A stretch of 64,000 bases of DNA from Anaerolineae bacterium (lineage in GTDB: Bacteria; Chloroflexota; Anaerolineae; JAAYZQ01). Location: contig DAOTXL010000077.1 of NCBI GenBank assembly GCA_034435455.1, positions 9,344-73,343 of the forward strand, read 5' to 3'. Under the pieces are notes generated by a model, which saw only the letters and a program-made list of their open reading frames with translations, made no database searches and was not told the origin of the DNA. Each line of letters starts with the position of its first letter. Position 1 is the first letter of the stretch. Positions 1-16,091 of this stretch are shown here, in pieces. The position numbers and the translations under genes are program-made.

Positions 1-724
1 CCCCCATCGCCTCGCAAACCCGCGCCATTTCGTTGGCAAAGGCAATGTTCACGTCGCGGTAAGCGTTCTCCATCGTCTTGGCCAGTTCGGCGGCCAGCAC
101 GCTGGTGGGCGTGATCTCCCGGCGGACGATGGTCTTGTACAGTTCCACGGCCCGCCTCGTGCTTTCTTCGTTGATGCCACCCACCACCCGGGGAAAGTCG
201 GTGATATATTGCAGCAGTTTGCCGGGCATCACCCGTTCGTAGGAAAAGGCCAGGTAGAAATCTTCGCCGGCTTTCAGGCCCGATCCCTCTTCCAGGATCG
301 GTTTGACCACCTGTTCGGTGGTGCCGGGGGCCACGGTGGATTCGATGACCACCAGCGTGCCCGGCTGCAGGTGTTGAGCGGCCTGGGCACTGACCGTGCG
401 CAGGCTCAGGTACTCGGGGATGCGGTTGGTATCGGTCGGTGTCTGCACGTCAATCAGGATGACGTCCGCCTGTCTGCACACCGTAAAGTCATCGGTCACG
501 TGGAAGCTCTTTTTCTCCAGGACGACACGGGCGATCAGTTCGTCCATGCCCGGTTCGTCCCCCTCGAACGGGTTTTTGCCGCCGTTAATCCAGTCGATCT
601 TCCAGCCCGACCGGCGGGAGCGCCGCTGGATGCCGATCACGGTGTGGCCCGGCACGTCGGCCAGGAGTGCTGCTGCCGGGATGCCAACATAACCCATCCC
701 AATAACCACGATAGTGCGTTGCAT
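1..724 (-). CDS. Nucleotide-sugar dehydrogenase (UDP-glucose/GDP-mannose dehydrogenase family, WecC/WbpA-like); 3' end runs off the window
   Basis: Not in the ORF track. Manual translation from ATG at 724: MQRTIVVIGMGYVGIPAAALLAD (GxGxxG Rossmann), DVILIDVQTP, LVVIESTVAPGTT, NIAFANE; SD AAGGGGAAG. Confidence 0.88.
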   Translation of the reverse strand, partial: MQRTIVVIGMGYVGIPAAALLADVPGHTVIGIQRRSRRSGWKIDWINGGKNPFEGDEPGMDELIARVVLEKKSFHVTDDFTVCRQADVILIDVQTPTDTNRIPEYLSLRTVSAQAAQHLQPGTLVVIESTVAPGTTEQVVKPILEEGSGLKAGEDFYLAFSYERVMPGKLLQYITDFPRVVGGINEESTRRAVELYKTIVRREITPTSVLAAELAKTMENAYRDVNIAFANEMARVCEAMG

Positions 725-734
725 CTTCCCCTTC

Positions 735-778
735 TAACCTCCAATTTCTAATCTTTAATCTCTAATTTAACCCGATTC
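735..778. repeat. AT-rich heptamer-like tandem repeat (TAATCTC-type) overlapping the hdrB 3' end
   Basis: Plus strand reads ...ccaatttctaatctttaatctctaatttaacc, with ~7-nt periodicity in an otherwise GC-rich context. Confidence 0.45.
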
Positions 779-1635
779 ATCCTCAACCCCAACTCATCGG
801 GCGTGAAACCCAAAGCCAGCCCCAGCAATTGCGGGTAATAGAGCACCGGCAGGCGGTAGGTCACGCCAAACTGGCGCTCGATGCTGCGTTGATTGATCTC
901 GTACATGATGTCGCAGAAAGGGCAGATGAGGATCAGGCCATCGGCCCCGGCGATGTGGACATGTTCCAGCTTGCTGTGGGCGATGGCCAGGGCCGTTTCC
1001 GGGTCAATGGCCAGGATGCCGCCGCCGCAACATTCCCCCTCTTCTTCATAGGGCACCAGCCGGGCGCCGGTAGCCTCAATCAGGTCGCCCAGGGTGTGGG
1101 GGTTCTCCGGATCGTCGAACCGGCCGTGGAGGTGGGCCGGCTTGAGATAGTGGCAGCCATAATGGGCGGCGAAGCCGTACGATGAGAGATCGATCCCTTT
1201 CCCTTCGCTCCGGGCGAGCGCCACCATCTGGCGCAGCCGCTCCGGGCCGACCTCTTCGTAGAGGATGCGGGCGTAATGGCGTACCCGCACCGTGCCCTCG
1301 TAGCGGCGGCCGGTCGTCTCGGCCAGCAGGGCGTTGACGCGGGCCCGCAGCGCCTGGTCATGCCGGAGGCGATAATCCGCTTCCAACAGGGTGCCGGTGC
1401 AGGCGCTGCACAGCGCACACACCTCCAGCCCTCGCTCCTCGGCCAGGGCCAGGTTGTTGGCTGCCATCAGCAGGGCCGCCTCCCACTGGAGCGGTTTGGT
1501 CGGATAGCCGCAACAGGTAAAGCCTTCCACGTCCACGAACTCCAGGCCCAGCCGTTCCGCCGTCCGTCGGGCGGCCAGCTCGTAGTTCATGGCCCGTACC
1601 GGCACGGTGCAACCCAGGTATAGTGCGAATTTCAT
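748..1635 (-). CDS. hdrB: Heterodisulfide reductase subunit B (two CCG domains)
   Basis: YLGCTVP, TCCG, CSAC, HYGCH, ECCGGG, CPFC and LPVLYYPQLLGLALG motifs. Confidence 0.93.
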   Translation of the reverse strand: MKFALYLGCTVPVRAMNYELAARRTAERLGLEFVDVEGFTCCGYPTKPLQWEAALLMAANNLALAEERGLEVCALCSACTGTLLEADYRLRHDQALRARVNALLAETTGRRYEGTVRVRHYARILYEEVGPERLRQMVALARSEGKGIDLSSYGFAAHYGCHYLKPAHLHGRFDDPENPHTLGDLIEATGARLVPYEEEGECCGGGILAIDPETALAIAHSKLEHVHIAGADGLILICPFCDIMYEINQRSIERQFGVTYRLPVLYYPQLLGLALGFTPDELGLRMNRVKLEIKD

Positions 1636-2135
1636 GCTTCTTCCGCCTCTTTCACCACACCACAGCGGACCAGGATGCGTCGCACGTCGTCGGCCTGTTC
1701 CTGGATCGGCGGCAGGCCCTGTTCTGCCCGGCGCTCGTTCTCAAAGGCGGTGATCTCGTACAGCCGGCCATGGTCGCGCAGCAGGCCTGCCTGTTGGAGG
1801 AAGGCCGGCGGCACATACCCCTGGCGCACGGCAATGTTGCGGATGGCGTTCATCAGCTCCGGGATGTGCACATCCTGGGGACAGCGTTCGTAGCAGGTGT
1901 AGCAGGTCGAGCACAGCCACACAAACTCGCTGCTCAGGACCTCCTGGCGCATGCCCAGCAGGGCCATGCGCACGATGCGCCGGGGGTTGTATTTTTCCGT
2001 CCGTCCGGCCACCGGGCAGCCGGCCACGCAGGTGCCGCACGAGAAGCAGCGCAAAAAGCGCTCCCCGCCCGGTTCGGCGGCGATCTCGGCCCGGAAGCCG
2101 GGGTCCAGGCGGCCCACGTCTATCATCTCAGGCAT
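1632..2135 (-). CDS. hdrC: Heterodisulfide reductase subunit C (2x[4Fe-4S])
   Basis: CFSCGTCVAGCP and WLCSTCYTCYERCPQ; ATGA overlap with hdrB. Confidence 0.93.
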   Translation of the reverse strand: MPEMIDVGRLDPGFRAEIAAEPGGERFLRCFSCGTCVAGCPVAGRTEKYNPRRIVRMALLGMRQEVLSSEFVWLCSTCYTCYERCPQDVHIPELMNAIRNIAVRQGYVPPAFLQQAGLLRDHGRLYEITAFENERRAEQGLPPIQEQADDVRRILVRCGVVKEAEEA

Positions 2136-2159: not shown

Positions 2160-3293
2160 CTATCCCTTTACGGCCTGGCCGATCCAGCCGATCAGATCGC
2201 GAACCTCCACCGAGCGGTCGGCCTCCAGGTCCCGCGCGGCGCAGGTCAGGTGGATCTGGCACTTGGGGCAGGTGGTCAGCATCACCTGGGCGCCCGTCTC
2301 CCGCGCCTGGCGCAGCTTTTCCTGCTGGATCAGTTTGGAACAGCCGCTGCAATTGACCCACGCCGTCGAGCCGCAGCACATGGCGCGCTCGCGGTTGTCT
2401 TCCATCTCGGCCAGCTCGAGGCCCGGCACACCGGCCAGGACCTGGCGGGGCGGTTCGTACACCTTCAGGTAGCGGCCCAGACGGCAGGGGTCGTGATAGG
2501 TCACGCGGCCGGGCAGTGGTTCCAGGGTCAGGTCGCCCCCGGCCATCTTGTCGGCCAGCAGTTCGGTCAGGTGCAGCATCTCGAAAGGCAACTGGCCCAC
2601 AAAGGCCGGGTATTCGTTCTTGAAGGCGTTGTAGCATTCGGCACAGGTAAAGATCACCTTCCGGGCCCCGCCGGCCCGGATCGTTTCGACATTCAGCTCT
2701 GCCAGCCGCCGGAAGCTGGCCAGGTCCCCGGCCAGCAACAGGTCGGCGCCGCAGCACCGTTCGGCGTTGCTGACGATGGGGGCGATCCCGACCCGGTTCA
2801 GCAACCGCACGGCGCTGCGGGCAATGGCCAGGGCCTGGACCCCCAGGTCGGCAAAGATGACGTCGAAAAAGGGCAGGCAGCCCACAAAATAAAAGTACTC
2901 CCCGTTCTCCACCACCTCCATGTCGGCGGTCAGCCAGTCGGTGCGGTTCTGGTGGACGTTCATCGTCTGGATGCGCATCACTTCCTGCAGGATGCCGTTG
3001 TGGGCATAGATGCCCCGCTCGCCGGCCTGGAACGCCTCGGCCCGCATTTCGATGATGAACCGGGCGAAATCCACATGGGAGGGGCAGCGGGCGCTGCACA
3101 ACCCGCAGGTCATGCACATCCACAGATGGGGGTCGGCCATGACCGCCGTGGCCTCGCCGCCGACCACCCGCTCGACGATGCGGCGGGGCGAATAGTCGGG
3201 GTCCACCCAGGCCAGCGGGCAACTGCCGGTACACTTGCCACAGTCCAGGCACAGATAGGCCCGGGTCCGTTGGATGATCGCTTGAAAGTTCAT
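2160..3293 (-). CDS. hdrD: HdrD/GlcF-like Fe-S oxidoreductase (2x[4Fe-4S] plus two CCG domains)
   Basis: CLDCGKCTGSCP, CMTCGLCSARCP, YFVGC, RCCG, CAEC, YHDPCRLGR, MCCG, TCPKC. Confidence 0.82.
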   Translation of the reverse strand: MNFQAIIQRTRAYLCLDCGKCTGSCPLAWVDPDYSPRRIVERVVGGEATAVMADPHLWMCMTCGLCSARCPSHVDFARFIIEMRAEAFQAGERGIYAHNGILQEVMRIQTMNVHQNRTDWLTADMEVVENGEYFYFVGCLPFFDVIFADLGVQALAIARSAVRLLNRVGIAPIVSNAERCCGADLLLAGDLASFRRLAELNVETIRAGGARKVIFTCAECYNAFKNEYPAFVGQLPFEMLHLTELLADKMAGGDLTLEPLPGRVTYHDPCRLGRYLKVYEPPRQVLAGVPGLELAEMEDNRERAMCCGSTAWVNCSGCSKLIQQEKLRQARETGAQVMLTTCPKCQIHLTCAARDLEADRSVEVRDLIGWIGQAVKG

Positions 3294-3419: not shown

Positions 3420-3926
3420 CTATCCGAAGACCTGGGGGGCAGGCTCCCCGGCCTGCCCGGACGGCCTGGAAAGGCCATCCCACCCATTTTCGGGTAGGTT
3501 CTTATCGGACCCTGGTTTCAACAGCAGCGGATTTGCTCCTGCCTGTTTGATCTGCGCCGTAAACTCGGTCACCACCTGAGCGAAGCGGGCCCCCTCCGCT
3601 GCCGAGATCCACTCCAGGCGCAGCCGGCCCGGGTCTATGCCCAGCAGGGCCATCAGGGAGCGGGCCAGTTCGACGTTGCGCACCGCCTTTTCGTTGCCCG
3701 AGAGGTAATGACAGTCGCCCGGATGGCAGCCGGTGACCAGCACGCCATCGGCGCCGGCCCCCAACGCTTCCAGGATGAACAGGGGGCTGACCCGCCCGGA
3801 GCACATCACCCGGATGACGCGCGTGGTGGGCGGGTATTGGATGCGGCTCACCCCGGCCAGGTCGGCGCCGGCGTAGGAGCACCAGTTGCAGGCAAAGACT
3901 ATAATTTTCGGTTGAAACTCATCCAT
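3420..3926 (-). CDS. mvhD: MvhD/HdrA-associated [2Fe-2S] subunit, copy 1, with a repeat-derived C-terminal extension
   Basis: FACNWCSYAGADLAG, RVMCSGRV, GCHPGDCHY, RLRLEWISAAEG. Confidence 0.93.
   Translation of the reverse strand: MDEFQPKIIVFACNWCSYAGADLAGVSRIQYPPTTRVIRVMCSGRVSPLFILEALGAGADGVLVTGCHPGDCHYLSGNEKAVRNVELARSLMALLGIDPGRLRLEWISAAEGARFAQVVTEFTAQIKQAGANPLLLKPGSDKNLPENGWDGLSRPSGQAGEPAPQVFG
3437..3483. repeat. REP-like double hairpin inside the mvhD 3' end
   Basis: gggcaggc-tccccg-gcctgccc followed by ggacggcc-tggaa-aggccatcc-cac; translated as the non-conserved tail GWDGLSRPSGQAGEPAP. Confidence 0.6.
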
Positions 3927-5699
3927 TTACACCCCCATCGCCGCCTGGATCATGGCCGTCACCTGCCGGCTGGTAAAGTGGGCTGCCTGCATGGCGCAGG
4001 TGGGGCAGACGACGGCGCAGGCCCCGCACCCCTTGCACAGCACCGGGTTCACCCGCGCCACGGTCCGGCCGGCGGGTCGGTTGGTCAGCCGGAAGAAAAC
4101 AGTCTCTGGCAGCGGGAGCTCCACAAACTCGATGGCGCCAAACTCACAGACATCGGCGCAGCGCCGGCAACCCCGGCACAGAGATTCATCCACGTGGGAG
4201 ACCGCCCCCGGGGCGCGGACCTGCTCTTTCGAGAGGACCGTCGCCGCCCGGGCCGCCGCGCCCAGGGCCTGGCCGATGGCCTCCTCCAGGTGGGCCGGCC
4301 AGTGGGCGCTGCCGCACAAAAAGATCCCATCGGTGGCAAAATCCAGCGGACGGAGCTTGACATGGGCCTCCAGGAAAAAGCCATACTCGTCCACCGGCAC
4401 CTTGAGGAGCTGGGCCAGCTCGCGGGCGCCTGGGGCCGGCACCGGCGGCGTCGAGAGCACCAGCAGGTCGTAGGGGATGCTCAGCCGGGCCCCCAGCAGT
4501 TCGTCGTAGACGACCACCCGCCCGGCCGCCACCTGCGGCGGGTCCTGGGGCGTGTAGCGCGTAAAGAGGACGCCCAGGTCGCGCGCCCGCCCGTAATAGT
4601 CCTCGAAGTAGGTGCCGTGTACCTCGATGTCGCGGTAAAGCACATAGACTTCGGCCTGTGGGTTGCGCTCCTTGAGCAACATGGCGTTCTTGATCGCCGT
4701 CAGGCAGCAGATGCGCCCGCAATAGGCGTGCGTCTCGTCGCGGGCGCCCACACATTGAATCATGACCAGGTGGGAGATAGGATATGGGATCTTGCCGGCA
4801 GCCAGCCGCTGCTCGAGTTCCTGCTGGGTGATGACGCGCGGGTCGTCGCCGTAGCCGTAACGGCCCACCGGCTTGAATTCCTGGGCCCCGGTGGCGACCA
4901 GGATGACGCCGGCCGGCACCGGCAGGCTCACTTCCCGGCCGAACTGCCGGGTGCGCACCAGCAGGGTAAAGTTGCCGATATACCCCTGCACCTCCTGCAC
5001 CTCTGCCGAGGTCAGGACCTCGATGCGCGGTTCGTCGCGCACCCCGGCCACGTGGCGCTCGACCAGCTCCCGGGCGTGGGCCATGGTGGGATACAATCTG
5101 TCGAGGTGGCGCAGCACCCCCCCCAGTTCCGGCTCCCGTTCGATGAGGGTCACGGCAAAGCCACGGCGGGCCAGGCTCAGGGCGGCCGTCATGCCGGCCA
5201 CCCCCCCGCCGAGGACCGCAGCCGTCGGCTGAACCGGCAGCCTGGCCTCCTCCAGAGGCTCCAGCAGGGCGGCCCTGGCCACGCCCATGCGGATCAGGTC
5301 TTGGGCTTTCTGAGTGGCCTGCTCGCCGTCGCGCATGTGTACCCACGAACATTGGTCCCGGATGTTGACGAACTCGAACAGATAGCGGTTGAGGCCGGCC
5401 TCCTCGCAGGTCGCCTGGAACAGCGGCTCGTGGGTGCGCGGTGTGCAGGAAGCGACCACCACCCGGTTCAGATTGTGGGTGGCGATGGCAGAGCGGATCT
5501 CGGCCAGCCCGGCGTCGGAGCAGGTAAACAGGCTGTCGCCGGCCCAGACGACGCCGGGCAGCGCCCGCGCCGACTCGACCAGGGCCGGCACGTCCAGATA
5601 GCCGGCGATGTTGTGCCCGCAGTGGCAGACAAATACCCCAATGCGCGGGGCTTGCCTTCCGGGTGCCTGTGCTTCCTCCGGCCTTGAGCTACGAAACAT
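3927..5699 (-). CDS. hdrA: HdrA-family flavoprotein, C-terminal module (Cys-rich N-domain, FAD domain, C-terminal 2x[4Fe-4S])
   Basis: IGVFVCHCG, VVVASCTPRTHEPLF, FVNIRDQCSWVH, VLGGGVAG, YCGRICCLTAIKNA, CRGCRRCADVC, CKGCGACAVVCP. Confidence 0.9.
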   Translation of the reverse strand: MFRSSRPEEAQAPGRQAPRIGVFVCHCGHNIAGYLDVPALVESARALPGVVWAGDSLFTCSDAGLAEIRSAIATHNLNRVVVASCTPRTHEPLFQATCEEAGLNRYLFEFVNIRDQCSWVHMRDGEQATQKAQDLIRMGVARAALLEPLEEARLPVQPTAAVLGGGVAGMTAALSLARRGFAVTLIEREPELGGVLRHLDRLYPTMAHARELVERHVAGVRDEPRIEVLTSAEVQEVQGYIGNFTLLVRTRQFGREVSLPVPAGVILVATGAQEFKPVGRYGYGDDPRVITQQELEQRLAAGKIPYPISHLVMIQCVGARDETHAYCGRICCLTAIKNAMLLKERNPQAEVYVLYRDIEVHGTYFEDYYGRARDLGVLFTRYTPQDPPQVAAGRVVVYDELLGARLSIPYDLLVLSTPPVPAPGARELAQLLKVPVDEYGFFLEAHVKLRPLDFATDGIFLCGSAHWPAHLEEAIGQALGAAARAATVLSKEQVRAPGAVSHVDESLCRGCRRCADVCEFGAIEFVELPLPETVFFRLTNRPAGRTVARVNPVLCKGCGACAVVCPTCAMQAAHFTSRQVTAMIQAAMGV

Positions 5700-5705
5700 G
5701 GGTGG

Positions 5706-7001
5706 TCATCCTCTCCCCTCAAGGCCCAGCGCCATTTCGGCCGCCCGCGCTGCGGCGGCGCTGGCCTGGGCCACCGACTGGGGAATATCGGCCGGCCCCA
5801 GACAACAGCCACAGGCCACGATGCCGGGCCGGCTGGTGTCGGTCGGGGCGAAGGGGTCCACGCGGACAAAGCCGAACTCGTCCAGCTCGATGCCCAGCAC
5901 GGCGGCCAGTTGTGGGGCATCGTGGCGCGGCACCAGGCTGGTGGCCAGCACGGCCAGGTCCACCGTCATCCGCTGCGGGCGCGAGGTGGCCGCATCCTCA
6001 TACCTGACCACCGGGTTGTGGTTGTCGTCCTCCAGGATCTGGGCCACCCGCCCGTGGATAAAAGTGACGCCAAAATCACGCCGGGCCCGGTCCATGTACT
6101 CCCGGAACCCTTTGCCCGAACCCCTCAAATCGGTATAGAATATGTAGGAACGTGTCTCAGGATCGTGCTCCCAGGCCAGCACCGCCTCTTTGGTCGAGTG
6201 GACGCAGCACACCGTTGAGCAGTAGCGGTTGTGGCGCACATGCCGCGAACCGGTGCACTGCACAAAGCCGAGGGTCCTGGCCGGTCGTCCGTCGGAGGGG
6301 CGCAGCAGTTGGCCGCCGGTTGGCCCCGCGGCGCTGATGAGCCGCTCGTACTCCAGGGCGGTGATGACGTTGGGATAGCGTCGATAGCCGTACTGGCTCA
6401 GAGGGGTCGGATCGTAAAAGTCGTAGCCGGTGGCGACGACGAGGGCCCCTACCTCCAGCGTCAGTTCCCGATCCTGCTGCTCGAACCGGATCGCCCCGGC
6501 CGGGCATACCTTCTGACACAGGCCACATTTGCCCCGGAGCAGATAGGTGCATTGCTCCGGGTCAATGGTCATTACCAGCGGCACCGCCTGGGGGAAATAG
6601 AGATAGATCGCCCGGCGCTGGCTCAATCCCAGGTTGAAGGCATCGGGCACCGGACGGGGGCATTTGAGGGCGCACTCGCCGCAGCCGGTACACCGCTCCT
6701 CGTCCACATAGCGGGCATGTTTGAGCACCTGCACCTGAAACGCCCCGGCCTGGCCCGTCACGGCCCGGACTTCAGAACAGGTATGCAGCACCACGTTCGG
6801 ATGGCGGGCGCAATCCACCATCTTGGGCGACAGGATGCAGGTCGAGCAGTCGTTGGTGGGGAAGGTCTTGTCGAGTTGTGCCATCCGCCCGCCGATGCTG
6901 GGCAGGCGTTCCACCAGGTGGACGCGCAGCCCCTGTTCGGCCAGGTCCAGCGCTGCCTGGATGCCGGCGATCCCCCCGCCGAGGACGAGAACTTGTTTCA
7001 C
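5706..7001 (-). CDS. hdrA: HdrA-family flavoprotein, N-terminal module (FAD domain with inserted ferredoxin)
   Basis: VLGGGIAGIQAALDLA, GGRMAQLDKTFPTNDCSTCIL, CTGCGECALKCP, CGLCQKVCP, ITALEYERL, YCSTVCCVHSTKEA. Confidence 0.9.
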   Translation of the reverse strand: MKQVLVLGGGIAGIQAALDLAEQGLRVHLVERLPSIGGRMAQLDKTFPTNDCSTCILSPKMVDCARHPNVVLHTCSEVRAVTGQAGAFQVQVLKHARYVDEERCTGCGECALKCPRPVPDAFNLGLSQRRAIYLYFPQAVPLVMTIDPEQCTYLLRGKCGLCQKVCPAGAIRFEQQDRELTLEVGALVVATGYDFYDPTPLSQYGYRRYPNVITALEYERLISAAGPTGGQLLRPSDGRPARTLGFVQCTGSRHVRHNRYCSTVCCVHSTKEAVLAWEHDPETRSYIFYTDLRGSGKGFREYMDRARRDFGVTFIHGRVAQILEDDNHNPVVRYEDAATSRPQRMTVDLAVLATSLVPRHDAPQLAAVLGIELDEFGFVRVDPFAPTDTSRPGIVACGCCLGPADIPQSVAQASAAAARAAEMALGLEGRG

Positions 7002-7393
7002 CGCGCCCTCTCCTCTTGCTGCCTGACAAACCGCCGCACCGCCTCGATCAGCGCCGGCCCCTCCCCCACACGCACCTGATAGAACGCCAGTTGTTCCTCC
7101 CGGAACCCCAGCAGTCCGGCCAGCCGACGCACCTCCTCGAACAGCTCCTCCGCCCGGCGGCTGCCGAACTCATAGTGGCACTCCTCCGGTGGGCAACCGA
7201 CCAGCATCACCCCATCGGCCCCCTTCTGAAAGGCCTGGAGGATGGTGCTGGTTCCGACCTGCCCCAGGCAATCCACTTTCAGCGGCCGGACCCCGGCCGG
7301 GTAGGAGAGGTGTTGTTTCCCCGCCTCTTGCAGGCTTTGGTGGGCGTTCCAATTGCAGGTAAAGATGACGACTCGCGGCTCCGATTCCGCCAT
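6998..7393 (-). CDS. mvhD: MvhD-like [2Fe-2S] subunit, copy 2 (divergent), 131 aa
   Basis: Real start is the ATG at 7393 inside track ORF 6998..8167 (MAESEPRVVIFTCNWN...DCLGQV...GCPPEECHY); Cys13/42/67/72 spacing is retained; SD GGAGGGAAAC. Confidence 0.85.
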   Translation of the reverse strand: MAESEPRVVIFTCNWNAHQSLQEAGKQHLSYPAGVRPLKVDCLGQVGTSTILQAFQKGADGVMLVGCPPEECHYEFGSRRAEELFEEVRRLAGLLGFREEQLAFYQVRVGEGPALIEAVRRFVRQQEERAR

Positions 7394-7416: not shown

Positions 7417-10400
7417 TCACGCCAGGATCGCTTCCAGCATCGCTTCGATCTGGGCGCCGGTTGGATGGCCGGTGAGGATGGCTCCGGCCGGGCAGCGGGT
7501 AGCGCACACCCCCCCGCCGCGACAGATCGCCGGATCGATCCAGGCTATCCGCTTTTCCCCTTCGCCCTGGAGCTGGATGGCGCCGAATTCGCACACCTGC
7601 TCGCAGTCGCCACAGCCACGACAGCGGTCCGGGTCCACCACGGCTGCCATCGCTTCGGGCCAGACATGCTCCTGGCCCAGCCAGGCAGCCGCCCGCGCTG
7701 CGGCGGCCATGCCGGCGATCATGGGATCGACCGTCGGGTCGCAGATAAAGATGCCGGGCCGGTGGGTGTCGGCGCAGCCCCATTCCCCGTGGACGCGGGG
7801 ATGCCGCCCTGGCGTGTCGAACGCGGCGTTGATCTGGGCGTGCTCCTCGGCGTTGCGGGGGGCCAGGACCAGGGCCGAACCCTTCCACAGCGTCGCCCCA
7901 TTGTGCATGACGGTAAAGTGGCCGGGCGTCTGCCGGATCTGCCGGGGGACGGTCTTGAGCCGCAGCGCCTGGATGCGCTGTGCTGAAAGTGCTCCCTGGC
8001 AGATGGTTGCCGCCGGTCCGCTGCCCACAATCAGCACCGTTTTTTCCAGGGGCAGGGAGACGCGCGGCCGCACGACCGACAGCCGCGTTTTGGCCACGGC
8101 CGCCGCGATCATGGCCGAGGCGGTGGCGGTGGCGGCGGCCGGATCGTCGTCGTGGGCCCAGGCGCACTGTTCGCGGATGTTGACGAACTCGAACAGGGGG
8201 TTGCCCCGGTCAAAATGCCGGCCTAGCAGGTTATCTTTGCAGCGCACCCGCTGGTAGGTGCAGCTATAGCACACCTGGTCCACGGCGCAGCAGGAACAGG
8301 CAGCCAGCACCACCCGGTTCAGGTTCTGGTCGGCCACGGCCTGGTAGATGGCATCGGCGGCCTCGGGCGAACAGGATTGGGCCAGCACCTGGCTGTAGAC
8401 CACCCCCTGCCAGGTCCGTGCCTGGGCCTCCACCGCCGCCGTATCCACAATGTCCGAAATCTGGCCGTTGCACCGGCAGATGAACACGCCGATGCGCGCG
8501 GCACCCGCGGCGCTGACCAGCGGTGCCGGGCCGGTGGCAGGCCGTCGCCCGGCAAAGAGGTCCATCATCGCTCGCGCTGCGGCTGCCGATCCGGCCAGGG
8601 GGTCGTCCGGCTCTACCTGGTAGATCCCTTCTCCGGTTGCAAGGGGCAAGTTGTGAGTTACAAGGGGCAAGTTACCTTTTGCCTCTTGTCCCCTGCCCCT
8701 TGCCTCCTCTGCCAGGATGATGGCCCCCACCTCCAGCCGCTCGAAGCGTTCCTGCTGGTTGTGGACAATGGCCTTGGGCTCGCATACCGCCTCGCAGGCC
8801 AGGCACTCGGAGCAGGGCCCGCACATCAGGCAGCGCCGGGCCTCGGCTATGGCGGTCTCGGCGTCGTAGCCCAGCTCCACCTCGGCGTGACTGTGCAGGC
8901 GGCGGGCCATGGGAATGGTGGGGGCGGGGTGGCGGGGCACGGGGGTCAGTTCCTCACGGGTCAGCTCTCGCCGGGCGATGGGCATCTCTCGGGCCGAGAC
9001 CGAGAGCTCGACGGGCGGGATTCCCCGCAGGTAGGCGTCAATGCCGGCGGCTGCCTGCCGGGCAGAGCCGATGGCGTCAATGACCGACACCGGTTGGGTG
9101 ATGGCATCGCCGCCGGCGAACACCCCGGGGCGGTTGGTCATATACGACACCCGGTCCACATTGAAGGTGCCCTCGCGGGTGATGGCAAAGCCGTGCCCTT
9201 CCCCCAGGAACGACAGGTCAGGGGACTGGCCGATGGCCGGCACGACCATGTCAATCTCCAGGGTGAACTCGCTGCCGGCAATGGGCACCGGGCGGCGCCG
9301 GCCGGTGTGATCCGGTTCACCCGGTTTCATGCGCACGCACTCCAGGGCTACCACCCGTCCCTGTTCGTTGCCCAGGATGCGCACCGGAGCGACCAGGAAT
9401 TCGATGGGGACCCCTTCCCGTTCGGCCTCTTCGATCTCCTCGGGCAGGGCCGGCATCTCGGCCCGGGTGCGGCGGTAGAGCACCCGTACATGGTCCACCC
9501 CCAGCCGCTTGAGGGAGCGGGCCACATCCATGGCGGTGTTGCCTCCGCCGATGATCGCCACCCGGGTGGACACCCCTCCCAGCAGATAGCTCAACACCCT
9601 CATCTGCCAGTGCGGATCGTCGGTCTGGTGGGAGAGGTTGATCGCCTTCAGCAGTTCGATGCCGGCGACCACCCCTCGCAGCTCTTCGCCGGGGATGCGC
9701 AGTTTGTGGTCCCGGTGCGCTCCCACGCCGATGAACACCGCCTGGTACCCCATTGCGAACAGGTCGTCCAGGGTGTATTGGCCGTTTGGGCCGATGGGCG
9801 TATTGAGGCGGATCTCCACTCCCAGCCGTTCGATCCGTTCCACCTCGCGCCGGATCACGTCGCGGGGCAGCCGATAGGAGGGGATGCCCACGGCCATCAT
9901 GCCGCCGACCACCGGCAGCGCTTCAAAGACCGTCACCCGATAGCCCTTGCGGGCCAGATCGTCGGCCACGGCCAGGCCGGCCGGCCCGGCGCCGACTATG
10001 GCTACTCGCTGCGCTCCGGCTTCTGGCGGGGTCGTGGGCGGTGGGCACTCCGCCCCTTCTTCTTCCTGCCACTCCCAATCGGCGACAAACCGCTTCAGCA
10101 GGCGGATGGCCACCGCCTCGTCCACCTCGGCGCGGCGGCAGTTGAGCTCGCAGGGGTGGGTGCAGATGCGCCCGCAGATGCCGGGGAAGGGAATGGCCTG
10201 GCGGATCAGGTTCAGGGCCTCCTGGAACCGGCCCTGAGCGATGAGGGCGATGTAGCCCTGGACGTGGATGCCCGCCGGACAGGTGTTGGAGCATGGCGCC
10301 TTGCCCAATTTGTCAATGACCGCACAGCCGGGTTGTGCGCCTTCAAACAGATAAATAGCCTTGTGATCGGTGCCCGGTACCGTCACCGGGCAGACTTTCA

Positions 10401-10710
10401 GGCACTCCTTACAGGCGGTGCATTTGGTCAGGTCCACATAGCGGGGATGTTGGCGCAGCTCGACCTGAAAGCGCCCGGCCTCCCCCTCGGCGCGGTTGAG
10501 GCGCGTGTTGGTCCACAGGGTAATGTTGGGGTGCCTGGCCACCTCCAGCCACCGGGCATTGAGCAGGTGGCGAGGCACTGTAGTCGCGCCGCCGTTGCCC
10601 AGGAAGGGCGAAGGCTCGACCAGGTGGACCTCAATCCCGGAGTTGGCCAGGTCCAGGGCTGCCTGAATGCCGGCAACGCTGCCGCCGATGACAAGTGCAC
10701 CTTTGCTCAC
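7417..10710 (-). CDS. HdrL-like protein: degenerate HdrA scaffold with an inserted NfnB/GltD-type NAD(P)H:Fe-S/FAD module
   Basis: GGSVAGIQAALDLA, RYVDLTKCTACKEC, APCSNTCPAG, CGRICTHPCELNC, VGAGPAG, GGGNTAMDVAR, YRRTR, EARRCLMCGPCSEC, IGVFICRC, FVNIREQCAWAH, C-terminal ferredoxin. Confidence 0.85.
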   Translation of the reverse strand: MSKGALVIGGSVAGIQAALDLANSGIEVHLVEPSPFLGNGGATTVPRHLLNARWLEVARHPNITLWTNTRLNRAEGEAGRFQVELRQHPRYVDLTKCTACKECLKVCPVTVPGTDHKAIYLFEGAQPGCAVIDKLGKAPCSNTCPAGIHVQGYIALIAQGRFQEALNLIRQAIPFPGICGRICTHPCELNCRRAEVDEAVAIRLLKRFVADWEWQEEEGAECPPPTTPPEAGAQRVAIVGAGPAGLAVADDLARKGYRVTVFEALPVVGGMMAVGIPSYRLPRDVIRREVERIERLGVEIRLNTPIGPNGQYTLDDLFAMGYQAVFIGVGAHRDHKLRIPGEELRGVVAGIELLKAINLSHQTDDPHWQMRVLSYLLGGVSTRVAIIGGGNTAMDVARSLKRLGVDHVRVLYRRTRAEMPALPEEIEEAEREGVPIEFLVAPVRILGNEQGRVVALECVRMKPGEPDHTGRRRPVPIAGSEFTLEIDMVVPAIGQSPDLSFLGEGHGFAITREGTFNVDRVSYMTNRPGVFAGGDAITQPVSVIDAIGSARQAAAGIDAYLRGIPPVELSVSAREMPIARRELTREELTPVPRHPAPTIPMARRLHSHAEVELGYDAETAIAEARRCLMCGPCSECLACEAVCEPKAIVHNQQERFERLEVGAIILAEEARGRGQEAKGNLPLVTHNLPLATGEGIYQVEPDDPLAGSAAAARAMMDLFAGRRPATGPAPLVSAAGAARIGVFICRCNGQISDIVDTAAVEAQARTWQGVVYSQVLAQSCSPEAADAIYQAVADQNLNRVVLAACSCCAVDQVCYSCTYQRVRCKDNLLGRHFDRGNPLFEFVNIREQCAWAHDDDPAAATATASAMIAAAVAKTRLSVVRPRVSLPLEKTVLIVGSGPAATICQGALSAQRIQALRLKTVPRQIRQTPGHFTVMHNGATLWKGSALVLAPRNAEEHAQINAAFDTPGRHPRVHGEWGCADTHRPGIFICDPTVDPMIAGMAAAARAAAWLGQEHVWPEAMAAVVDPDRCRGCGDCEQVCEFGAIQLQGEGEKRIAWIDPAICRGGGVCATRCPAGAILTGHPTGAQIEAMLEAILA
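8637..8710. repeat. Inverted heptamer array (CAAGGGG/CCCCTTG type) translated in frame within the HdrL-like gene
   Basis: TTGCAAG GGGCAAG TTGTGAG TTACAAG GGGCAAG TTACCTT TTGCCTC TTGTCCC CTGCCCC TTGCCTC; encodes RGRGQEAKGNLPLVTHNLPLAT. Confidence 0.6.
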
Positions 10711-12281
10711 GTTCTCCCTCTACTTGCCTCTTGTCTCCCTCTCTCGTAGCCGACCTCGAGCGCTTTTATGTTCAGGTCGACCGTTTTGGCCGGCACCGAC
10801 TCGGCTACGGCCTGGCGCATCGCCTCCTTGCTCACTGCGCCGACGATGGCCGTCCAGAAACCGAGCATCACCGTGTTGGCGACGCGGTTGTTGCCCATCT
10901 CCTCGGCGATGCGGGTGGCCGGGAGGCCATAGGTGGTGATGTCCCGGCGATGGTCATCGGGCAGGGTCACCAGGCCGTTGTCAATCAGCAGCGTGCCGCC
11001 GGGGGCCAGCGTCGGGACATATTTGCTGTAGGCTCCCTGCGACATGATGATCATGCTGGTAGGCCGGATCAGGTGGGGGTGGTGGATCGGGTCGCTGGAG
11101 AGGACCACCTGCGATCCGGCAGCACCGCCCCGTGCCTCCGGGCCATAGCTCTGGGTGAAACAGGCCTCTAACCCATCGTAGAGGGCTGCCGCCTGGCCGA
11201 TGATCTTGCCGGCGCTGATAATCCCCTGGCCGCCGAACCCGCCCAATTGCACCTCGGTGCGGGGCACATAGTCGGTCCGCGGCGGCAGGTGGGGCCGCTC
11301 GTCCAGCGCCTTCTTTTCGGCCTGCCACCACTTTTCCCCTCGGGCTGCCAGAGCGTCGAGGGCTTGCTGCAGGTCCGGGCGGGGGTTATCCAGGAACTTG
11401 CCCTCGACGATCTCGACGATCTCGCCCTTTTCGTTCACCTTCACGTCGGCATCTTTGGGGTGGGTGCCGTGGGCGGTCCGGCCCACTTTTTGGTAATACT
11501 TCATCATCTCCAGGCCGCGCCGGCCCAGCCTTTCGGGGTCCAGCCCCCGGCCTTCCGGGTTCCAGCGGGCATAGGCTGTGGAGCAGGGGGCGATGACCTC
11601 GACGAAGCTAAAGCCGGGGTGGGCCAGGGCCTCGCGCAGGGTCCACTCCAACTGCCGGGCGTGGAGCACGGTCCAGCGGGCCACGAACGACGCGCCGCTG
11701 GCTGCCGCCAGGTAGGGCAGGTTGAAGGGGTATTCAAAGTTGCCATATTGGGTCGTTACCGCCCGGGCCTCATGGGGCGTGGTCGGCCCTACCTGGCCAC
11801 CGGTCATGCCGTAGTTAAAGTTGTTGACGCAGACCACCGTGATCTCCAGGTTGCGCCGGGCGGCGTGGATAAAGTGATTGCCGCCGATGCCGGCGATGTC
11901 GCCGTCGCCGGAGAGGACGACCACCTTGAGCTCCGGGTTGGCCAGCTTCAGGCCGGTGGCGAAAGGCAGGGCCCGGCCGTGAGTGGTGTGGAACGAGTCC
12001 AGCCGTACATAGCCGGCAATGCGCCCCGTGCAGCCGATGCCCGATACGACGGCCACCTTGTCCAGGTCCCACCCTTTGTTCTTTTCCAGCCATTGCAACG
12101 CGCCGATAAAGGTGGTCAGGGCGGTGCCCAGGCCGCACCCCTGGCACCAGATGTGGGGCAGCCGCTCGCCGCGCAACAGCTCGTCCATCGGGTGCAACCC
12201 GGTCACCCAGTCGCTCTGGTCGGGCGGCTCGTAGCCCAGCATTCTCAGTCGTTCGCTGCGGTGCATCTCTTCTTCGGGCAT
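10707..12281 (-). CDS. korB: 2-oxoacid:ferredoxin oxidoreductase beta-gamma fusion (KorB-KorC/OorBC)
   Basis: N-half: PHIWCQGCG, VVSGIGC, HGRALPFATG, SGDGD, NNFNYGMTGGQ (TPP binding). C-half: GGFGGQG, SYGPEARGG, NTVMLG (gamma subunit). Confidence 0.9.
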   Translation of the reverse strand: MPEEEMHRSERLRMLGYEPPDQSDWVTGLHPMDELLRGERLPHIWCQGCGLGTALTTFIGALQWLEKNKGWDLDKVAVVSGIGCTGRIAGYVRLDSFHTTHGRALPFATGLKLANPELKVVVLSGDGDIAGIGGNHFIHAARRNLEITVVCVNNFNYGMTGGQVGPTTPHEARAVTTQYGNFEYPFNLPYLAAASGASFVARWTVLHARQLEWTLREALAHPGFSFVEVIAPCSTAYARWNPEGRGLDPERLGRRGLEMMKYYQKVGRTAHGTHPKDADVKVNEKGEIVEIVEGKFLDNPRPDLQQALDALAARGEKWWQAEKKALDERPHLPPRTDYVPRTEVQLGGFGGQGIISAGKIIGQAAALYDGLEACFTQSYGPEARGGAAGSQVVLSSDPIHHPHLIRPTSMIIMSQGAYSKYVPTLAPGGTLLIDNGLVTLPDDHRRDITTYGLPATRIAEEMGNNRVANTVMLGFWTAIVGAVSKEAMRQAVAESVPAKTVDLNIKALEVGYERGRQEASRGRT

Positions 12282-12286
12282 GGTCC

Positions 12287-13570
12287 TTACTCCTCGGCTG
12301 CTGCCACGGCGCTGACCTTTTGGGAAGGGGATCGTCCGTCAGGTGCCCGCACCTGGTCGGGGGAGATCCTGCCGGCCGCCAGGCGGATGACGTCGAGGAC
12401 ATGGTGCGGTTCCAGGATGTCGCCCCCGGCCCGGTTGGCGCCGAACACCAACGCCTGGCCGGCGGCGCAGCGTTCCACTTCGCGGACGATCTGGCCCATG
12501 TTGATCTCCGGCACCACAAAGGCGCGGATGCCTTTGGCCAGTTGCCGGATGCGCTCTTCGGGGAAGGGCCAGACGGTGATCAGCCGCAGGTAGCCCACGC
12601 GGAGGCCCTCCTCCCTGGCCTGTTCGATGGGCCACAGGGAGGTCCGCGCCGAGATGCCGTAGGACACCACCACCACTTCGGCGTCGGCCAGGTAGCGCTC
12701 CTCCACCTGGATGATCTCGGCCCGGTGGGCGCGGATCTTGTTCACCAGCCGCCGGACATTCCATTCGTGGGCCTGGGCGTTCATCACCGGATAGCCCCGC
12801 TCGTCGTGGGTCAGGCCGGTGACATGGATGCGATACCCTTCGCCGGCGATGGTCATGGGCGAGATGTAGCCGTCGCCGTTGCCGGCCGGGTTATCGCGGA
12901 AGATGCGAAAATGGTCGGGGGGCACATCTCCCCGGAGCACCACCGGGCGGTTGACGATTTCGACCTCTTCCGGTGGGGGGATGACCACCTTTTCGGTCAT
13001 ATGGCCCACTTCGGCGTCGCTCATCACCAGCACCGGGACGCGGTATTTTTCCGACAGGTTAAAGGCGCGGATGGTCAGGTCGAACATCTCCTGGGGGGAG
13101 ACGGGCGACAGGGCGATGATCTCATAGTCGCCGTGGGAACCCCAGCGGGCCTGCATCATGTCCTGCTGCCCCACCAGGGTCGGCAGCCCGGTAGAGGGGC
13201 CGCCGCGCTGGACGTTGACCAGCACGCAGGGGGTCTCCAGCATGATGCCCAGGCCCAGGTTTTCCATCATCAGCGAAAAGCCGGGGCCGCTGGTGGCGGT
13301 CATGGCCTTGGCCCCGGCCCACGATGCCCCCAGGATGGCGTTCATCGAGGCCAGCTCATCCTCCATCTGGATATAGACGCCGCCTACCTGGGGCAACCGG
13401 ACCGACATCCGCTCGGCGATCTCGGTTGCCGGGGTGATGGGGTAGCCGGCGAAGAAGCGGCAGCCGGCCAGGATGGCCCCCTCGGCGCAGGCGTGGTCCC
13501 CCAGCATGAAATGTTCGCCGGTCAGCAACCCTTTTGTCGGTTTTGCGGCCAATTCTCCTGGTTTGATCAT
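12287..13570 (-). CDS. korA: 2-oxoacid (2-oxoglutarate):ferredoxin oxidoreductase alpha subunit
   Basis: GCRFFAGYPITPATEI, QMEDE, ATSGPGFSLM, VNVQRGGPSTGLPT, VPEINMGQ. Confidence 0.92.
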   Translation of the reverse strand: MIKPGELAAKPTKGLLTGEHFMLGDHACAEGAILAGCRFFAGYPITPATEIAERMSVRLPQVGGVYIQMEDELASMNAILGASWAGAKAMTATSGPGFSLMMENLGLGIMLETPCVLVNVQRGGPSTGLPTLVGQQDMMQARWGSHGDYEIIALSPVSPQEMFDLTIRAFNLSEKYRVPVLVMSDAEVGHMTEKVVIPPPEEVEIVNRPVVLRGDVPPDHFRIFRDNPAGNGDGYISPMTIAGEGYRIHVTGLTHDERGYPVMNAQAHEWNVRRLVNKIRAHRAEIIQVEERYLADAEVVVVSYGISARTSLWPIEQAREEGLRVGYLRLITVWPFPEERIRQLAKGIRAFVVPEINMGQIVREVERCAAGQALVFGANRAGGDILEPHHVLDVIRLAAGRISPDQVRAPDGRSPSQKVSAVAAAEE

Positions 13571-13875
13571 CGTTCCCCCTCGGCTTTGTGGATCGGCTCG
13601 ATCTTGTCAGGAGGATGCATGCCGCCGTTTTCCACATAGATGGCGAAATCGGGGCACAGCAGGGCACACAGGCCGCAGTTCACGCACCCGGAACCGTCGG
13701 TGATCTCCGGCGGGTGATACCCTTTGGTGTTGGTCTGTTTGGACATGACCAGCACCCCCCGCGGGCAGAACTCGACGCAGAAGCCGCAGCCTTTGCACCG
13801 TTCCTCGATGATCTGGACGATCCCATGCGGTATGCGGACGCGATCGCGGTCCAGTGGTTGTCTCCAGTAGGTCAC
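13567..13875 (-). CDS. korD: 2-oxoacid oxidoreductase delta subunit (2x[4Fe-4S] ferredoxin)
   Basis: CKGCGFCVEFCP and CVNCGLCALLCPDFAI; DABC gene order. Confidence 0.88.
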   Translation of the reverse strand: MTYWRQPLDRDRVRIPHGIVQIIEERCKGCGFCVEFCPRGVLVMSKQTNTKGYHPPEITDGSGCVNCGLCALLCPDFAIYVENGGMHPPDKIEPIHKAEGER

Positions 13876-14053: not shown

Positions 14054-14920
14054 TCAAACCAGTTGTGCCACCAGGTCGGCGATCTGTCCTGGATGGCTGG
14101 CCACCCGCACTCCGACCGCGGCAAAGGCGGCGATCTTTTCGGCTGCCGTACCTTCTCCGCCCTCGATAATGGCGCCGGCATGTCCCATCCGCTTGCCGGG
14201 TGGAGCGGTCTGCCCGGCGATAAAGGCGGTCACCGGTTTGGTCATATAGTGGGCGATAAACTCGGCTGCCCGCTGTTCGTCCGTGCCGCCGATCTCGCCG
14301 ATGAGCACCACCTGTTCGGTCTGCGGGTCCTCTTCGAACAGCCGCAGCACGTCAATAAAGTCGGTGCCGACGATCGGGTCGCCGCCGATGCCAATGGCCG
14401 TGGATTGGCCCAGGCCGTGGGCCGTCAGGGCGTAGACCACCTCGTAGGTCAGGGTGCCGCTGCGTGACACCACGCCAACGGGGCCGGGGGTGTGGATATG
14501 GCCGGGCATGATCCCCACTTTGGCTTCGCCAGGGGTGATGATGCCGGGGCAGTTCGGCCCGATCAGGCGGGTCTCGGTGCGGTCCAGGTAGGCACGCACC
14601 CGGATCATGTCCAGGACCGGGATGCCTTCGGTGATGCATACCACCACCCGGATGCCGACGTCGGCAGCCTCCAGGATGGCATCGGGGGCAAAGCGGGCGG
14701 GGACGTAGATGATGGAGGTATTGGCGCCGGTGGCTTCCACTGCCTCTCGGACCGTGTCGAATACCGGCACGCCGGCCACCCAGCCGCCGCCTTTGCCGGG
14801 CGAGGTACCGGCCACCACGTTGGTGCCATAGTCGATCATCTGCCGGGTATGGAACTCTCCCTCCCGACCGGTAATGCCCTGTACCAGCAGGCGTGTGTCT
14901 TTGTTGACCAGAATGCTCAT
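14054..14920 (-). CDS. sucD: Succinyl-CoA synthetase alpha subunit
   Basis: [37 protein letters not shown] (phospho-His). Confidence 0.97.
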
Positions 14921-14954
14921 TTCTATCCCCTTCTTGTTCCAGGCCGGGCGGGTC

Positions 14955-16091
<1,137 letters not shown>

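Follow-up and report, generated by a model that had tools for sequence, protein, structure and literature searches.

HdrA is the paradigm of the flavin-based electron-bifurcating proteins. In the methanogen protein, the clusters of the N-terminal domain, of the inserted ferredoxin domain and of the C-terminal ferredoxin domain constitute the low-potential route, and the CxxCC cluster starts the high-potential route to HdrC and HdrB; a recent structure places the Sec197/Cys pair (Sec, selenocysteine) between the flavin adenine dinucleotide (FAD) and cluster A3 of the N-terminal domain (PMC13518236). Residues K409 and E356 have been proposed as markers of bifurcating HdrA (PMC12054007). The definition of a larger relative, HdrL, comes from Desulfobacterium autotrophicum (Strittmatter 2009, PMC2702500). 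The gene investigated here is located at positions 7417-10710 of the minus strand of a 64,000-nucleotide stretch of DNA from an Anaerolineae bacterium (contig DAOTXL010000077.1), designated below as the window. Its product, P0001, is an iron-sulfur (Fe-S) protein of 1097 amino acids encoded by an intact open reading frame. As in the definition of HdrL, it is a large HdrA-related protein with a glutamate-synthase-small-subunit-like NAD(P)H-binding domain, and mvhD is the next gene. P0001 belongs to a flavin-less class of HdrL, called the short class in the following, which is widespread and previously undescribed: a large conserved family keeps the HdrA scaffold after deletion of both flavin sites. 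No description of such a class was found in the literature.

Domain organization of the protein

The domain map of P0001 was established from matches to solved structures, with the HdrA numbering of 5odc/8rvu. The protein is a pseudo-dimer of two HdrA-derived halves in one chain. The first half consists of a core with its inserted ferredoxin, the second of an N-terminal domain, a core and a C-terminal ferredoxin, and a complete NfnB/GltD-type module for FAD and NADPH is spliced into the inserted-ferredoxin domain. Residues 1-135 correspond to HdrA 143-298 (Rossmann start, beta-meander and first ferredoxin motif of the inserted domain), residues 137-563 to the NfnB/GltD-type module, residues 631-667 to HdrA 291-327 (second ferredoxin motif and next core strand), residues 738-902 to HdrA 4-156 (N-terminal domain and start of the second Rossmann fold) and residues 952-1093 to HdrA 499-647 (last part of the flavin domain, then the C-terminal ferredoxin). 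The insertion point of the NfnB module is situated between HdrA positions ~298 and 291-327. The preliminary description of this locus had pointed to a domain order parallel to that of the HdrA pair encoded downstream, and the structure matches of the three proteins agree with it: P0002 spans HdrA 145-562 (core and inserted ferredoxin), P0003 spans HdrA 1-243 and 325-653, and together they reproduce the part order of P0001 minus the NfnB module.

On the minus strand of the window, the coding sequence begins with the Rossmann stub of module 1 (residues 1-92, 10435..10710), which reads GGSVAG and is ~8 residues short at the DKTFPTxDCxxC loop. It is followed by the first half of the inserted-ferredoxin domain (residues 93-136, 10303..10434) with the ligands C97-x2-C100-x2-C103-x3-C107-P, by the NfnB/GltD-type module (residues 137-563, 9022..10302), which combines a Fer4_20 Fe-S part with FAD and NADPH Rossmann motifs, and by a linker with the second half of the inserted ferredoxin (residues 564-667, 8710..9021), in which C627, C630, C633, C636, C639 and C643 are invariant and precede the strand LEVGAIILA. 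A C-terminal remnant of flavin domain 1 comes next (residues 668-737, 8500..8709), at the place from which ~173 HdrA flavin-domain residues are gone. The HdrA N-terminal domain (residues 738-880, 8071..8499) has C745, C747, C780, C805 and C849 as cluster cysteines, and includes a class-specific Cys-rich insert, CSCCAVDQVCYSCTYQRVRC (residues 805-824, 8239..8298). The chain ends with the Rossmann stub of module 2 (residues 889-1015, 7666..8046; GSGPAA, with ~195 flavin-domain residues gone) and the C-terminal 2x[4Fe-4S] ferredoxin domain (residues 1020-1085, 7456..7653). When 33 HdrL sequences of the short class and 18 of the long class are aligned, the cysteines of the ferredoxin-type domains, including those of the first half of the inserted ferredoxin, and of the N-terminal domain are invariant in both.

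Seven [4Fe-4S]-type sites can be assigned from the ligand sets of P0001: the inserted ferredoxin, the NfnB module and the C-terminal ferredoxin account for two each, and the N-terminal domain for one. All the cluster cysteines of the ferredoxin-type domains and of the N-terminal domain are kept, except for a glycine at the second cysteine of the last motif. This motif, CRGGGVCATRCP (residues 1063-1073, window 7492-7524, minus strand), is found as CxG[G/D/E]GxC in relatives of at least 71% identity, and as CxGCGxC in distant short and long HdrL proteins. The substitution suggests that the terminal cluster of P0001 may be a [3Fe-4S] cluster or one with a non-cysteine ligand.

Models computed with AlphaFold 2 (AF2) were compared with known folds. 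The whole-protein model, based on a 40-sequence alignment, has a predicted local distance difference test score (pLDDT) of 66.9 and a predicted template modelling score of 0.42, with poor Fe-S regions, and a fold search with it matches only NfnB, GltD and DPD. A second model, restricted to residues 620-1097 (pLDDT 72), matches HdrA chains at E ~1e-14 with a template modelling (TM) score of 0.26, and then thioredoxin-reductase chains, including the 191-residue 4ccr_D (target-normalised TM 0.44). The TM score to HdrA is low because subdomains are absent, and this model serves only as a confirmation of ancestry.

The NfnB-type module had been described as complete, and this statement holds. GAGPAG (240-245), GGGNTAMDVAR (388-398) and YRRTRAEMPA (412-421, with YRRTR at 412-416) are all present, together with the Fer4_20 ligands C140, C144, C183, C187, C191 and E188 and with R280 in the YRLP motif; the FAD, NADPH and Fer4_20 motifs and R280 are invariant in the family. 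The module matches 9bov_A, 9n5u_A, 8oh5_C, 4ylf_B and 5jca_L with E-values of 2e-113 to 3e-93, and the AF2 model superposes on 4ylf_B and 5jca_L with target-normalised TM scores of 0.73-0.74. Bit scores are higher for modules of the insertion type (384 for 9bov_A, 351 for 8oh5_C) than for free NfnB (327), and the alignment to the former extends through their RCLxCG-C tail. The motifs shared with NADPH-using structures suggest a preference of P0001 for NADPH. In five other HdrL proteins, short and long (P0143, P0162, P0137, P0150 and P0210), the YRRTRxEMPA segment is replaced, for example by ACLExxxxMPG or VSWTVPEELTA, and because of this replacement the nucleotide preference may differ among HdrL subgroups.

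Loss of both flavin sites

The absence of the DKTFPTxDCxxC motif, of the YCSxxCC..K segments and of most of both FAD C-terminal halves, claimed from the first inspection of the sequence, was borne out by a motif scan, in which P0001 contains neither DKTFPTxDC nor CxxCC, and by MAFFT alignment with P0332, a long HdrL paralogue of 1525 amino acids encoded in the same genome. The extent of the losses was measured on this alignment and on those with other long forms. P0001 shows a gap of ~8 residues at the DKTFPTNDCAMC loop of P0332, and its own sequence reads GGATTVPRHLL in place of the DKTFPTxDC(x2)C/U loop, which is the site of the Cys/Sec197 pair. Flavin domain 1 lacks 173 residues (P0332 740-912) and flavin domain 2 lacks ~195, in three gaps of 40, 19 and 136 residues (P0332 1138-1348); the total flavin-domain deficit of the short form with respect to the long one is ~376 residues. 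The equivalents of E356 and K409 fall in the deleted segments of both modules, and they are present in P0002, P0003 and P0332. Three proteins of the same genome were used as controls, namely P0332, P0333 (a double HdrA of 1038 amino acids without NfnB module) and P0334 (a "module 1 plus NfnB" protein of 918 amino acids). All of them keep DKTFPT(N/L/H)DC and (Y)CSxxCC..K.

The nucleotide-binding folds that remain are stubs. In module 1 (GGSVAG), the middle glycine of GxGxxG is kept in 7 of the 33 short-class sequences versus 17/17 aligned long-class rows. The second Rossmann motif had been called eroded. It reads GSGPAA, of the form GxGxxA, which is in itself a mild change, but in the clade of P0001 beta-2 does not end in an acidic residue and the GG and ATG motifs are missing. 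A complete thioredoxin-reductase-like FAD domain with GxGxxG is not found in the HdrA-derived parts of P0001. The stubs are the least conserved parts of the short class, with 23-37% mean pairwise identity versus 42-55% in the Fe-S and NfnB parts, the lowest value (23%) being that of residues 668-737. The stub of module 2 is modelled by AF2 with a pLDDT of 73-91, as beta-alpha-beta plus meander. The proposal of a pseudo-HdrA scaffold deprived of the HdrA flavin-site elements and equipped with an NfnB-type module is supported by these results.

The short class also gained a structural element. The Cys-rich insert corresponds in the MAFFT alignment to a gain of 10 residues, at a place where the long forms read C(T/S)PRTHEPxF. 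Its residues C807, C808, C814 and C817 are found in 33/33 short-class and 0/18 long-class sequences. With its five invariant cysteines, this insert is a putative extra Fe-S site.

A related observation concerns the double HdrA proteins. HdrA' and HdrA'' (window 3927-7001, minus strand) together mirror P0333, the fused double HdrA encoded elsewhere in the genome. Here DKTFPTNDC occurs only in the first half, and the second half reads DRLYPTMAH, like module 2 of long HdrL. The asymmetry is therefore a feature of all double HdrAs and is not confined to HdrL.

Short and long classes of HdrL

A set of 1.84 billion cluster representatives was searched exhaustively and yielded 26,987 matches, and motif typing of the best 150 separated four groups. 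The short class accounts for at least 26 representatives among these 150; DKTFPTxDC and CxxCC are absent from them and the Cys-rich insert is always there. The regular expression used for the insert undercounts this class, P0193 (CACCSLDFVC) being an example of a missed member. The long class comprises 17 representatives of 1404-1532 amino acids, from Syntrophaceae/Syntrophobacterales, Armatimonadota, WOR-3 and Synergistaceae. DKTFPTxDC is present once in 15/17 of them (one of the others is N-truncated and one has a variant), CxxCC is present twice in 17/17, and none has the insert. The third group consists of single HdrA proteins with an NfnB insert, of the ANME-1 HdrA9-11 type (PMC9012536), and the fourth of "module 1 plus NfnB" proteins. 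P0136 is an intermediate form, a full-length protein in which the Cys motifs of module 1 have been lost and the insert is already present.

The 120 best homologues of P0001 are all of the short type. They share 54-97% identity and a common architecture, have for the most part 1050-1160 amino acids, and the named members are Anaerolineae and other Chloroflexota. Some are fused to MvhD and reach 1225-1240 amino acids (P0105, P0117). Overall, the short class spans 34-97% identity and is found mainly in Chloroflexota, including Dehalococcoidia. A scan of species genomes, which had the DKTFPT motif among its search patterns, detected 80 near-full-length loci of the long form, mostly in Desulfobacterota; the taxa concerned are Syntrophorhabdus, Smithella, Desulfobacteraceae, Desulfosarcina, Desulfococcus, Desulfarculus, Acidobacteriota, Bacillota, Chloroflexota and others. 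The long homologues of Desulfobacteraceae and other Desulfobacterota were taken as proxies for HdrL1-3 of D. autotrophicum.

This distribution qualifies the initial view of P0001 as a design unlike canonical HdrL. The difference is real with respect to long HdrL, as judged from the 17 representatives and P0332, and the long proteins, typical of sulfate reducers and syntrophs, are free of these deletions. The same deletions are, however, found in the whole short class and are not private to this genome.

Short and long HdrL occur together in the same genomes and are therefore paralogues with different jobs. In the source genome, the long HdrL locus (G000:C16, L006:2638-10758) combines a double HdrA, MvhD and long HdrL beside a MetF-C-terminal-like gene, with no 2-oxoacid:ferredoxin oxidoreductase (OFOR) beside the long copy. 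At the locus of the "module 1 plus NfnB" protein (G000:C118, L007:155-8742), the genes that come next encode an HdrD-like protein, HdrA and EtfB/EtfA. As the neighbors differ among the three loci, the NfnB-bearing HdrA paralogues have three partner sets in one genome.

Conserved synteny of the short class

In the window, P0001 is part of a block of co-directional genes on the minus strand, which reads SucC/SucD (beta, alpha), OFOR delta, alpha and beta-gamma, P0001, MvhD1, HdrA', HdrA'', MvhD2, HdrD-like, HdrC, HdrB and UDP-glucose dehydrogenase. The succinyl-CoA synthetase genes (14054..16091) encode the beta (14955-16091) and alpha (14054-14920) subunits, and the OFOR genes (10707..13875) the delta (13567-13875) and alpha (12287-13570) subunits and a beta-gamma fusion (10707-12281). 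The presence of succinyl-CoA synthetase genes beside the OFOR points to a 2-oxoglutarate-type enzyme. The GTG start of P0001 overlaps the stop codon of the beta-gamma gene by 4 nt (GTGA), and its homologues open with the same MSKGAL... sequence. Downstream are located MvhD1 (6998..7393), a region (3420..7001) with HdrA' (P0002, 5706-7001), HdrA'' (P0003, 3927-5699) and MvhD2 (3420-3926), the flavin-site motifs being kept in all three, the HdrD-like protein with Fer4 and 2x CCG (2160..3293), a conserved disulfide-reductase partner, and finally HdrC (1632-2135) and HdrB (748-1635), at 748..2135.

For synteny analysis, the window proteins were mapped by tblastn onto 17 loci (HdrL identity 45-78%), to which four loci with gene calls were added. 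The order OFOR - short HdrL - MvhD - HdrD was found in every locus examined, usually with SucCD first. OFOR directly precedes short HdrL in every locus whose sequence extends upstream, and MvhD comes after short HdrL wherever the sequence continues past the gene, or is fused to it (P0105 and P0117). In MvhD1 and in the MvhD domains of these two fusions, CNWN is found instead of CNWC, so that one of the five usual cysteines is gone, which suggests a possible dedicated HdrL-associated subtype of MvhD.

HdrA'-HdrA''-MvhD2 and HdrC-HdrB are restricted to the window and L004 (78% identity), and are absent from L022 (73%) and from all the more distant loci. The adjacent HdrA pair is therefore a late, subclade-specific insertion, and HdrC-HdrB is an addition of the same kind. 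The loss of the cysteine in the last ferredoxin motif of HdrL predates this insertion, because L022 shows the loss without the insertion. The HdrA that is conserved instead is a selenocysteine HdrA-MvhD fusion (Sec-HdrA-MvhD), with an in-frame TGA at the position of Sec197 in the motif LDK(V/T)YPxxxCSIU. In 11/11 Anaerolineae loci with enough sequence, its gene has the same orientation as HdrD and is found 0.5-5 kb further downstream; in the most distant short-class loci (34-43% identity) it comes directly after HdrD. In the source genome this protein is P0335 (G000:C77:5149-7767; L008:2147-4768, minus strand), ~1.6 kb before the start of the window. Its in-frame TGA falls in LDKVYPDIECSIU, and the protein ends with a Cys4 zinc-ribbon-like tail; orthologues with the same TGA occur in L001 and L025. 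Gene callers split such genes at the TGA into fragments of ~200 and ~650 amino acids, and this is why the gene was overlooked in L003 and L005; the idea, suggested by these two loci, of an HdrL working without any HdrA was dropped, since tblastn and the distant loci show Sec-HdrA-MvhD downstream nearly everywhere. Co-occurrence with "any HdrA" was likewise abandoned as a measure, the many Hdr paralogues per genome making it uninformative, and the orthologue of P0335 was used in its place. Among 121 genomes of the class, this orthologue is present in 25 overall and in 15/15 of those with short HdrL.

The cooperation with a catalytic HdrA that had been envisaged for P0001 is thus favored by the conserved neighborhood, but not in the form first proposed. 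The adjacent pair (5706 and 3927) exists only in the window and L004, and the conserved HdrA is the Sec-HdrA-MvhD protein. A literal HdrA:HdrL heterodimer is moreover unlikely, because HdrL already holds both halves of the HdrA pseudo-dimer.

Some variations can be observed around this core. The UDP-glucose/GDP-mannose dehydrogenase gene, directly after HdrB in the window (2-724, minus strand), is found on the same strand directly after HdrD or HdrB, with 72-90% identity, in the window, L001, L003, L004, L009, L020 and L021. The beta and gamma subunits of the OFOR, fused in the window (10707-12281, minus strand), are also fused in L001, L003, L005 and L009; they are separate in the gene calls of the P0210 locus, L025 and L026, and the tblastn match is in two pieces in L010 and L012-L019. 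In L026 (6765-9960), genes for a 570-residue NfnB-like protein and a 486-residue ferredoxin-domain protein are located between OFOR and short HdrL, and may represent a split second HdrL-like unit.

Possible function and alternatives

The NfnB FAD occupies the only complete flavin site of P0001, and short HdrL is predicted to bind this one flavin and about 7-8 Fe-S clusters. The part of HdrA that survives would be the low-potential Fe-S conduit; the losses would be the bifurcating flavin, the Cys/Sec relay and the CxxCC cluster with which the high-potential branch begins. Since the conduit is kept and the bifurcating flavin is gone, the protein can be read as a probable non-bifurcating NADP(H) dehydrogenase combined with a polyferredoxin-like wire, with a role that may resemble that of FlxABCD, or of the Mvh/Fdh input module and polyferredoxin of the methanogen Hdr complexes. 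On the basis of these features, we propose that short HdrL and its own MvhD serve as an entry point for NADP(H), with a single flavin, and as an Fe-S conduit. NADP(H) and the OFOR, which is of the 2-oxoglutarate type and translationally coupled to HdrL, would both be linked in this way to a core made of a flavin-bearing HdrA and of the HdrD disulfide reductase. We hold this reading tentatively and give it slightly less than an even chance. The partner HdrA would be the Sec-HdrA-MvhD fusion, joined in the subclade of the window by HdrA'/HdrA'', and bifurcation or confurcation would take place at the FAD of this partner. The net reaction could then be written 2 NADPH + R-S-S-R + succinyl-CoA + CO2 <-> 2 NADP+ + 2 RSH + 2-oxoglutarate + CoA.

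A physical association of short HdrL with OFOR or HdrA is deduced from gene order only. Several observations weigh against the proposal. HdrD and Sec-HdrA-MvhD are set apart in many Anaerolineae loci by unrelated genes (UDP-glucose dehydrogenase, a two-component system), so that the two may not be co-transcribed. The co-occurrence with Sec-HdrA-MvhD is phylogenetically nested and could be explained in part by shared ancestry. The tight linkage of HdrD is always to HdrL-MvhD and not to HdrA, which would also suit an HdrL-MvhD-HdrD enzyme complete in itself. Confidence in the AF2 models is modest (pLDDT 67 and 72). Finally, module 2 keeps GxGxxA and many relatives keep the acidic residue after beta-2, so that residual nucleotide binding at this module is possible.

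The main alternative is the self-contained enzyme just mentioned, which would bifurcate at the NfnB-type FAD, as in NfnAB/NfnSL, the HdrA flavins having been lost because the bifurcation site moved. The two [4Fe-4S] clusters of the module and the HdrA-derived wire would then be the low-potential branch to OFOR or ferredoxin, and the [2Fe-2S] cluster of MvhD, like that of NfnA, the high-potential entry to HdrD. This scheme draws on the HdrL-MvhD-HdrD genes, always adjacent and often overlapping, on the natural HdrL-MvhD fusions (P0105, P0117), on the invariance of R280 (YRLP) in the FAD pocket and of all FAD and NADPH motifs, on the fact that the NfnB FAD is the proven bifurcation site in NfnAB (PMC10482914), and on the remaining HdrA parts, which are exactly the low-potential conduit. 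The module is, however, nearer to the insertion type of Stn and NfnABC (the Bfu-type Nfn), in which bifurcation was lost and NfnB-like modules act as non-bifurcating NADPH inputs (PMC10482914, PMC11829005), than to free NfnB. The arginine of YRLP was rejected as a marker of bifurcation: it is kept in bifurcating and non-bifurcating modules alike and does not separate them, and the discriminating arginine geometry is unreadable from sequence (PMC10482914). No second acceptor is demonstrable beside the NfnB FAD, and the bifurcation-competent Sec-HdrA-MvhD conserved nearby would be unnecessary. We therefore regard a relocated bifurcation site as unlikely. It is still less probable that HdrL is a plain electron sink, taking the electrons of OFOR downhill to NADP+ (as a 2-oxoglutarate:NADP+ oxidoreductase), and optionally to a disulfide via MvhD/HdrD, with no energy coupling. 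The OFOR-HdrL translational coupling, the single predicted flavin and the upstream SucCD, which fits an oxidative conversion of 2-oxoglutarate to succinate with ATP formation in fermentative Anaerolineae, would all be in keeping with such a sink; it leaves unexplained why MvhD, HdrD and Sec-HdrA-MvhD are strictly conserved with HdrL, and an uncontrolled drain to a high-potential disulfide would waste low-potential electrons.

Two further alternatives question the loss of the flavin sites itself. The Rossmann stubs could still bind FAD or another ADP-containing ligand, the HdrA sites being remodelled and not lost. G9, G14, G896 and G898 are nearly invariant, E32 is kept in 19/33 short-class sequences, module 2 retains GxGxxA, and the pLDDT of the stubs is high, the model of the C-terminal half matching HdrA and then thioredoxin-reductase chains. 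This possibility is nonetheless considered very improbable: the middle glycine of GxGxxG is lost in 26/33 sequences, neither the ATG nor the GD-type motifs remain, the surroundings of the isoalloxazine (E356, K409, the CxxCC cluster and the Cys/Sec loop) are deleted, and no other part of the protein evolves as fast as the stubs. As for a decaying, non-functional copy of long HdrL, which the large deletions with respect to the long paralogue might evoke, it was rejected on conservation and is hardly conceivable: the gene has an unbroken reading frame, its architecture recurs in thousands of sequences from 34% to 97% identity, the Fe-S ligands are invariant, a class-specific insert was gained and the synteny is fixed.

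The proposal of an NADP(H) input and conduit can be pushed one step further, even if this extension is rather doubtful. OFOR, short HdrL, MvhD, HdrD and Sec-HdrA-MvhD might constitute one hard-wired super-complex, which would be in bacteria what the Hdr-Vhu/Fdh-Fwd(Fmd) assemblies are in methanogens. The flavin-less HdrL would be at once its NADPH port and its polyferredoxin. The electrons bifurcated by HdrA would pass, without free ferredoxin, into the reductive carboxylation of succinyl-CoA dependent on thiamine pyrophosphate, that is, an NADPH-driven synthesis of 2-oxoglutarate, or the system would run in reverse. The Cys-rich insert would hold a new cluster in place of the lost flavin and Cys/Sec relay.

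Should the proposed role of short HdrL be correct, it would illustrate the recycling of bifurcating enzymes into electron-input and wire modules, offer a one-flavin test case for bifurcation by an NfnB-like FAD in a fusion protein, and reveal, in the abundant anaerobic Chloroflexota, a route between NADPH, a thiol/disulfide couple and 2-oxoglutarate/CO2 chemistry. There is also a consequence for annotation. The present labels of these proteins are "FAD-dependent oxidoreductase", "glutamate synthase beta-like" or "HdrA-like", and a bifurcating HdrA should not be presumed from them.

Relation to described complexes

Long HdrL is the closest described relative, with homologues of ~1470-1530 amino acids in Syntrophaceae, Smithella, Desulfobacteraceae, Acidobacteriota, Bacillota and other taxa. 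It shares with P0001 the HdrA core, the NfnB-like module in the inserted-ferredoxin domain, the HdrA N-terminal domain, the second core, the C-terminal ferredoxin, the ferredoxin-type cysteines and the adjoining mvhD. It differs by its full flavin domains, by the presence of DKTFPTxDC once and of CxxCC..K twice, by the absence of a Cys-rich insert in the N-terminal domain, and by its genomic context, the long copy of the same genome having no adjoining OFOR. In Type III HdrA and in HdrA9-11 of ANME-1, the inserted-ferredoxin domain is also interrupted by an NfnB-like module of ~500 amino acids (PMC9012536, PMC12054007). These proteins are, however, single HdrA units with the N-terminal domain first, an intact flavin domain, and K409 and E356 conserved. 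Their representatives P0154 and P0158 keep CxxCC, and P0158 keeps DKTFPTxDC too.

With regard to the NfnB module alone, the best sequence matches are StnC (8oh5) and the NfnA subunit of NfnABC (9bov, 9n5u). They are likewise of the insertion type, with the RCLxCG-C tail, FAD, NADPH and 2 [4Fe-4S]. Their host scaffold is NuoG/Fdh-like and not HdrA-like, and their bifurcating partner is HydBC-like and not HdrA. At the level of the whole gene cluster, a Flx-Hdr complex feeding 2-oxoglutarate:ferredoxin oxidoreductase was proposed from genomes on the basis of kor-flx-hdr clusters (PMC6315080). FlxABCD-HdrABC resembles the system proposed here in that an NAD(P)H-oxidising Fe-S module and an MvhD-like adaptor would feed an HdrA core genetically tied to this oxidoreductase. 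The proteins are nevertheless unrelated to FlxABC: in the short class, the input module would be a degenerate HdrA pseudo-dimer with NfnB, and its motifs suggest NADPH and not NADH. A last parallel, by cluster name only, is the "HdrAL/POR" cluster Sfum_0012-0018 of Syntrophobacter fumaroxidans (PMC5947623), which would associate HdrA and HdrL with a pyruvate/2-oxoacid:ferredoxin oxidoreductase and was not detected in the published proteomes.

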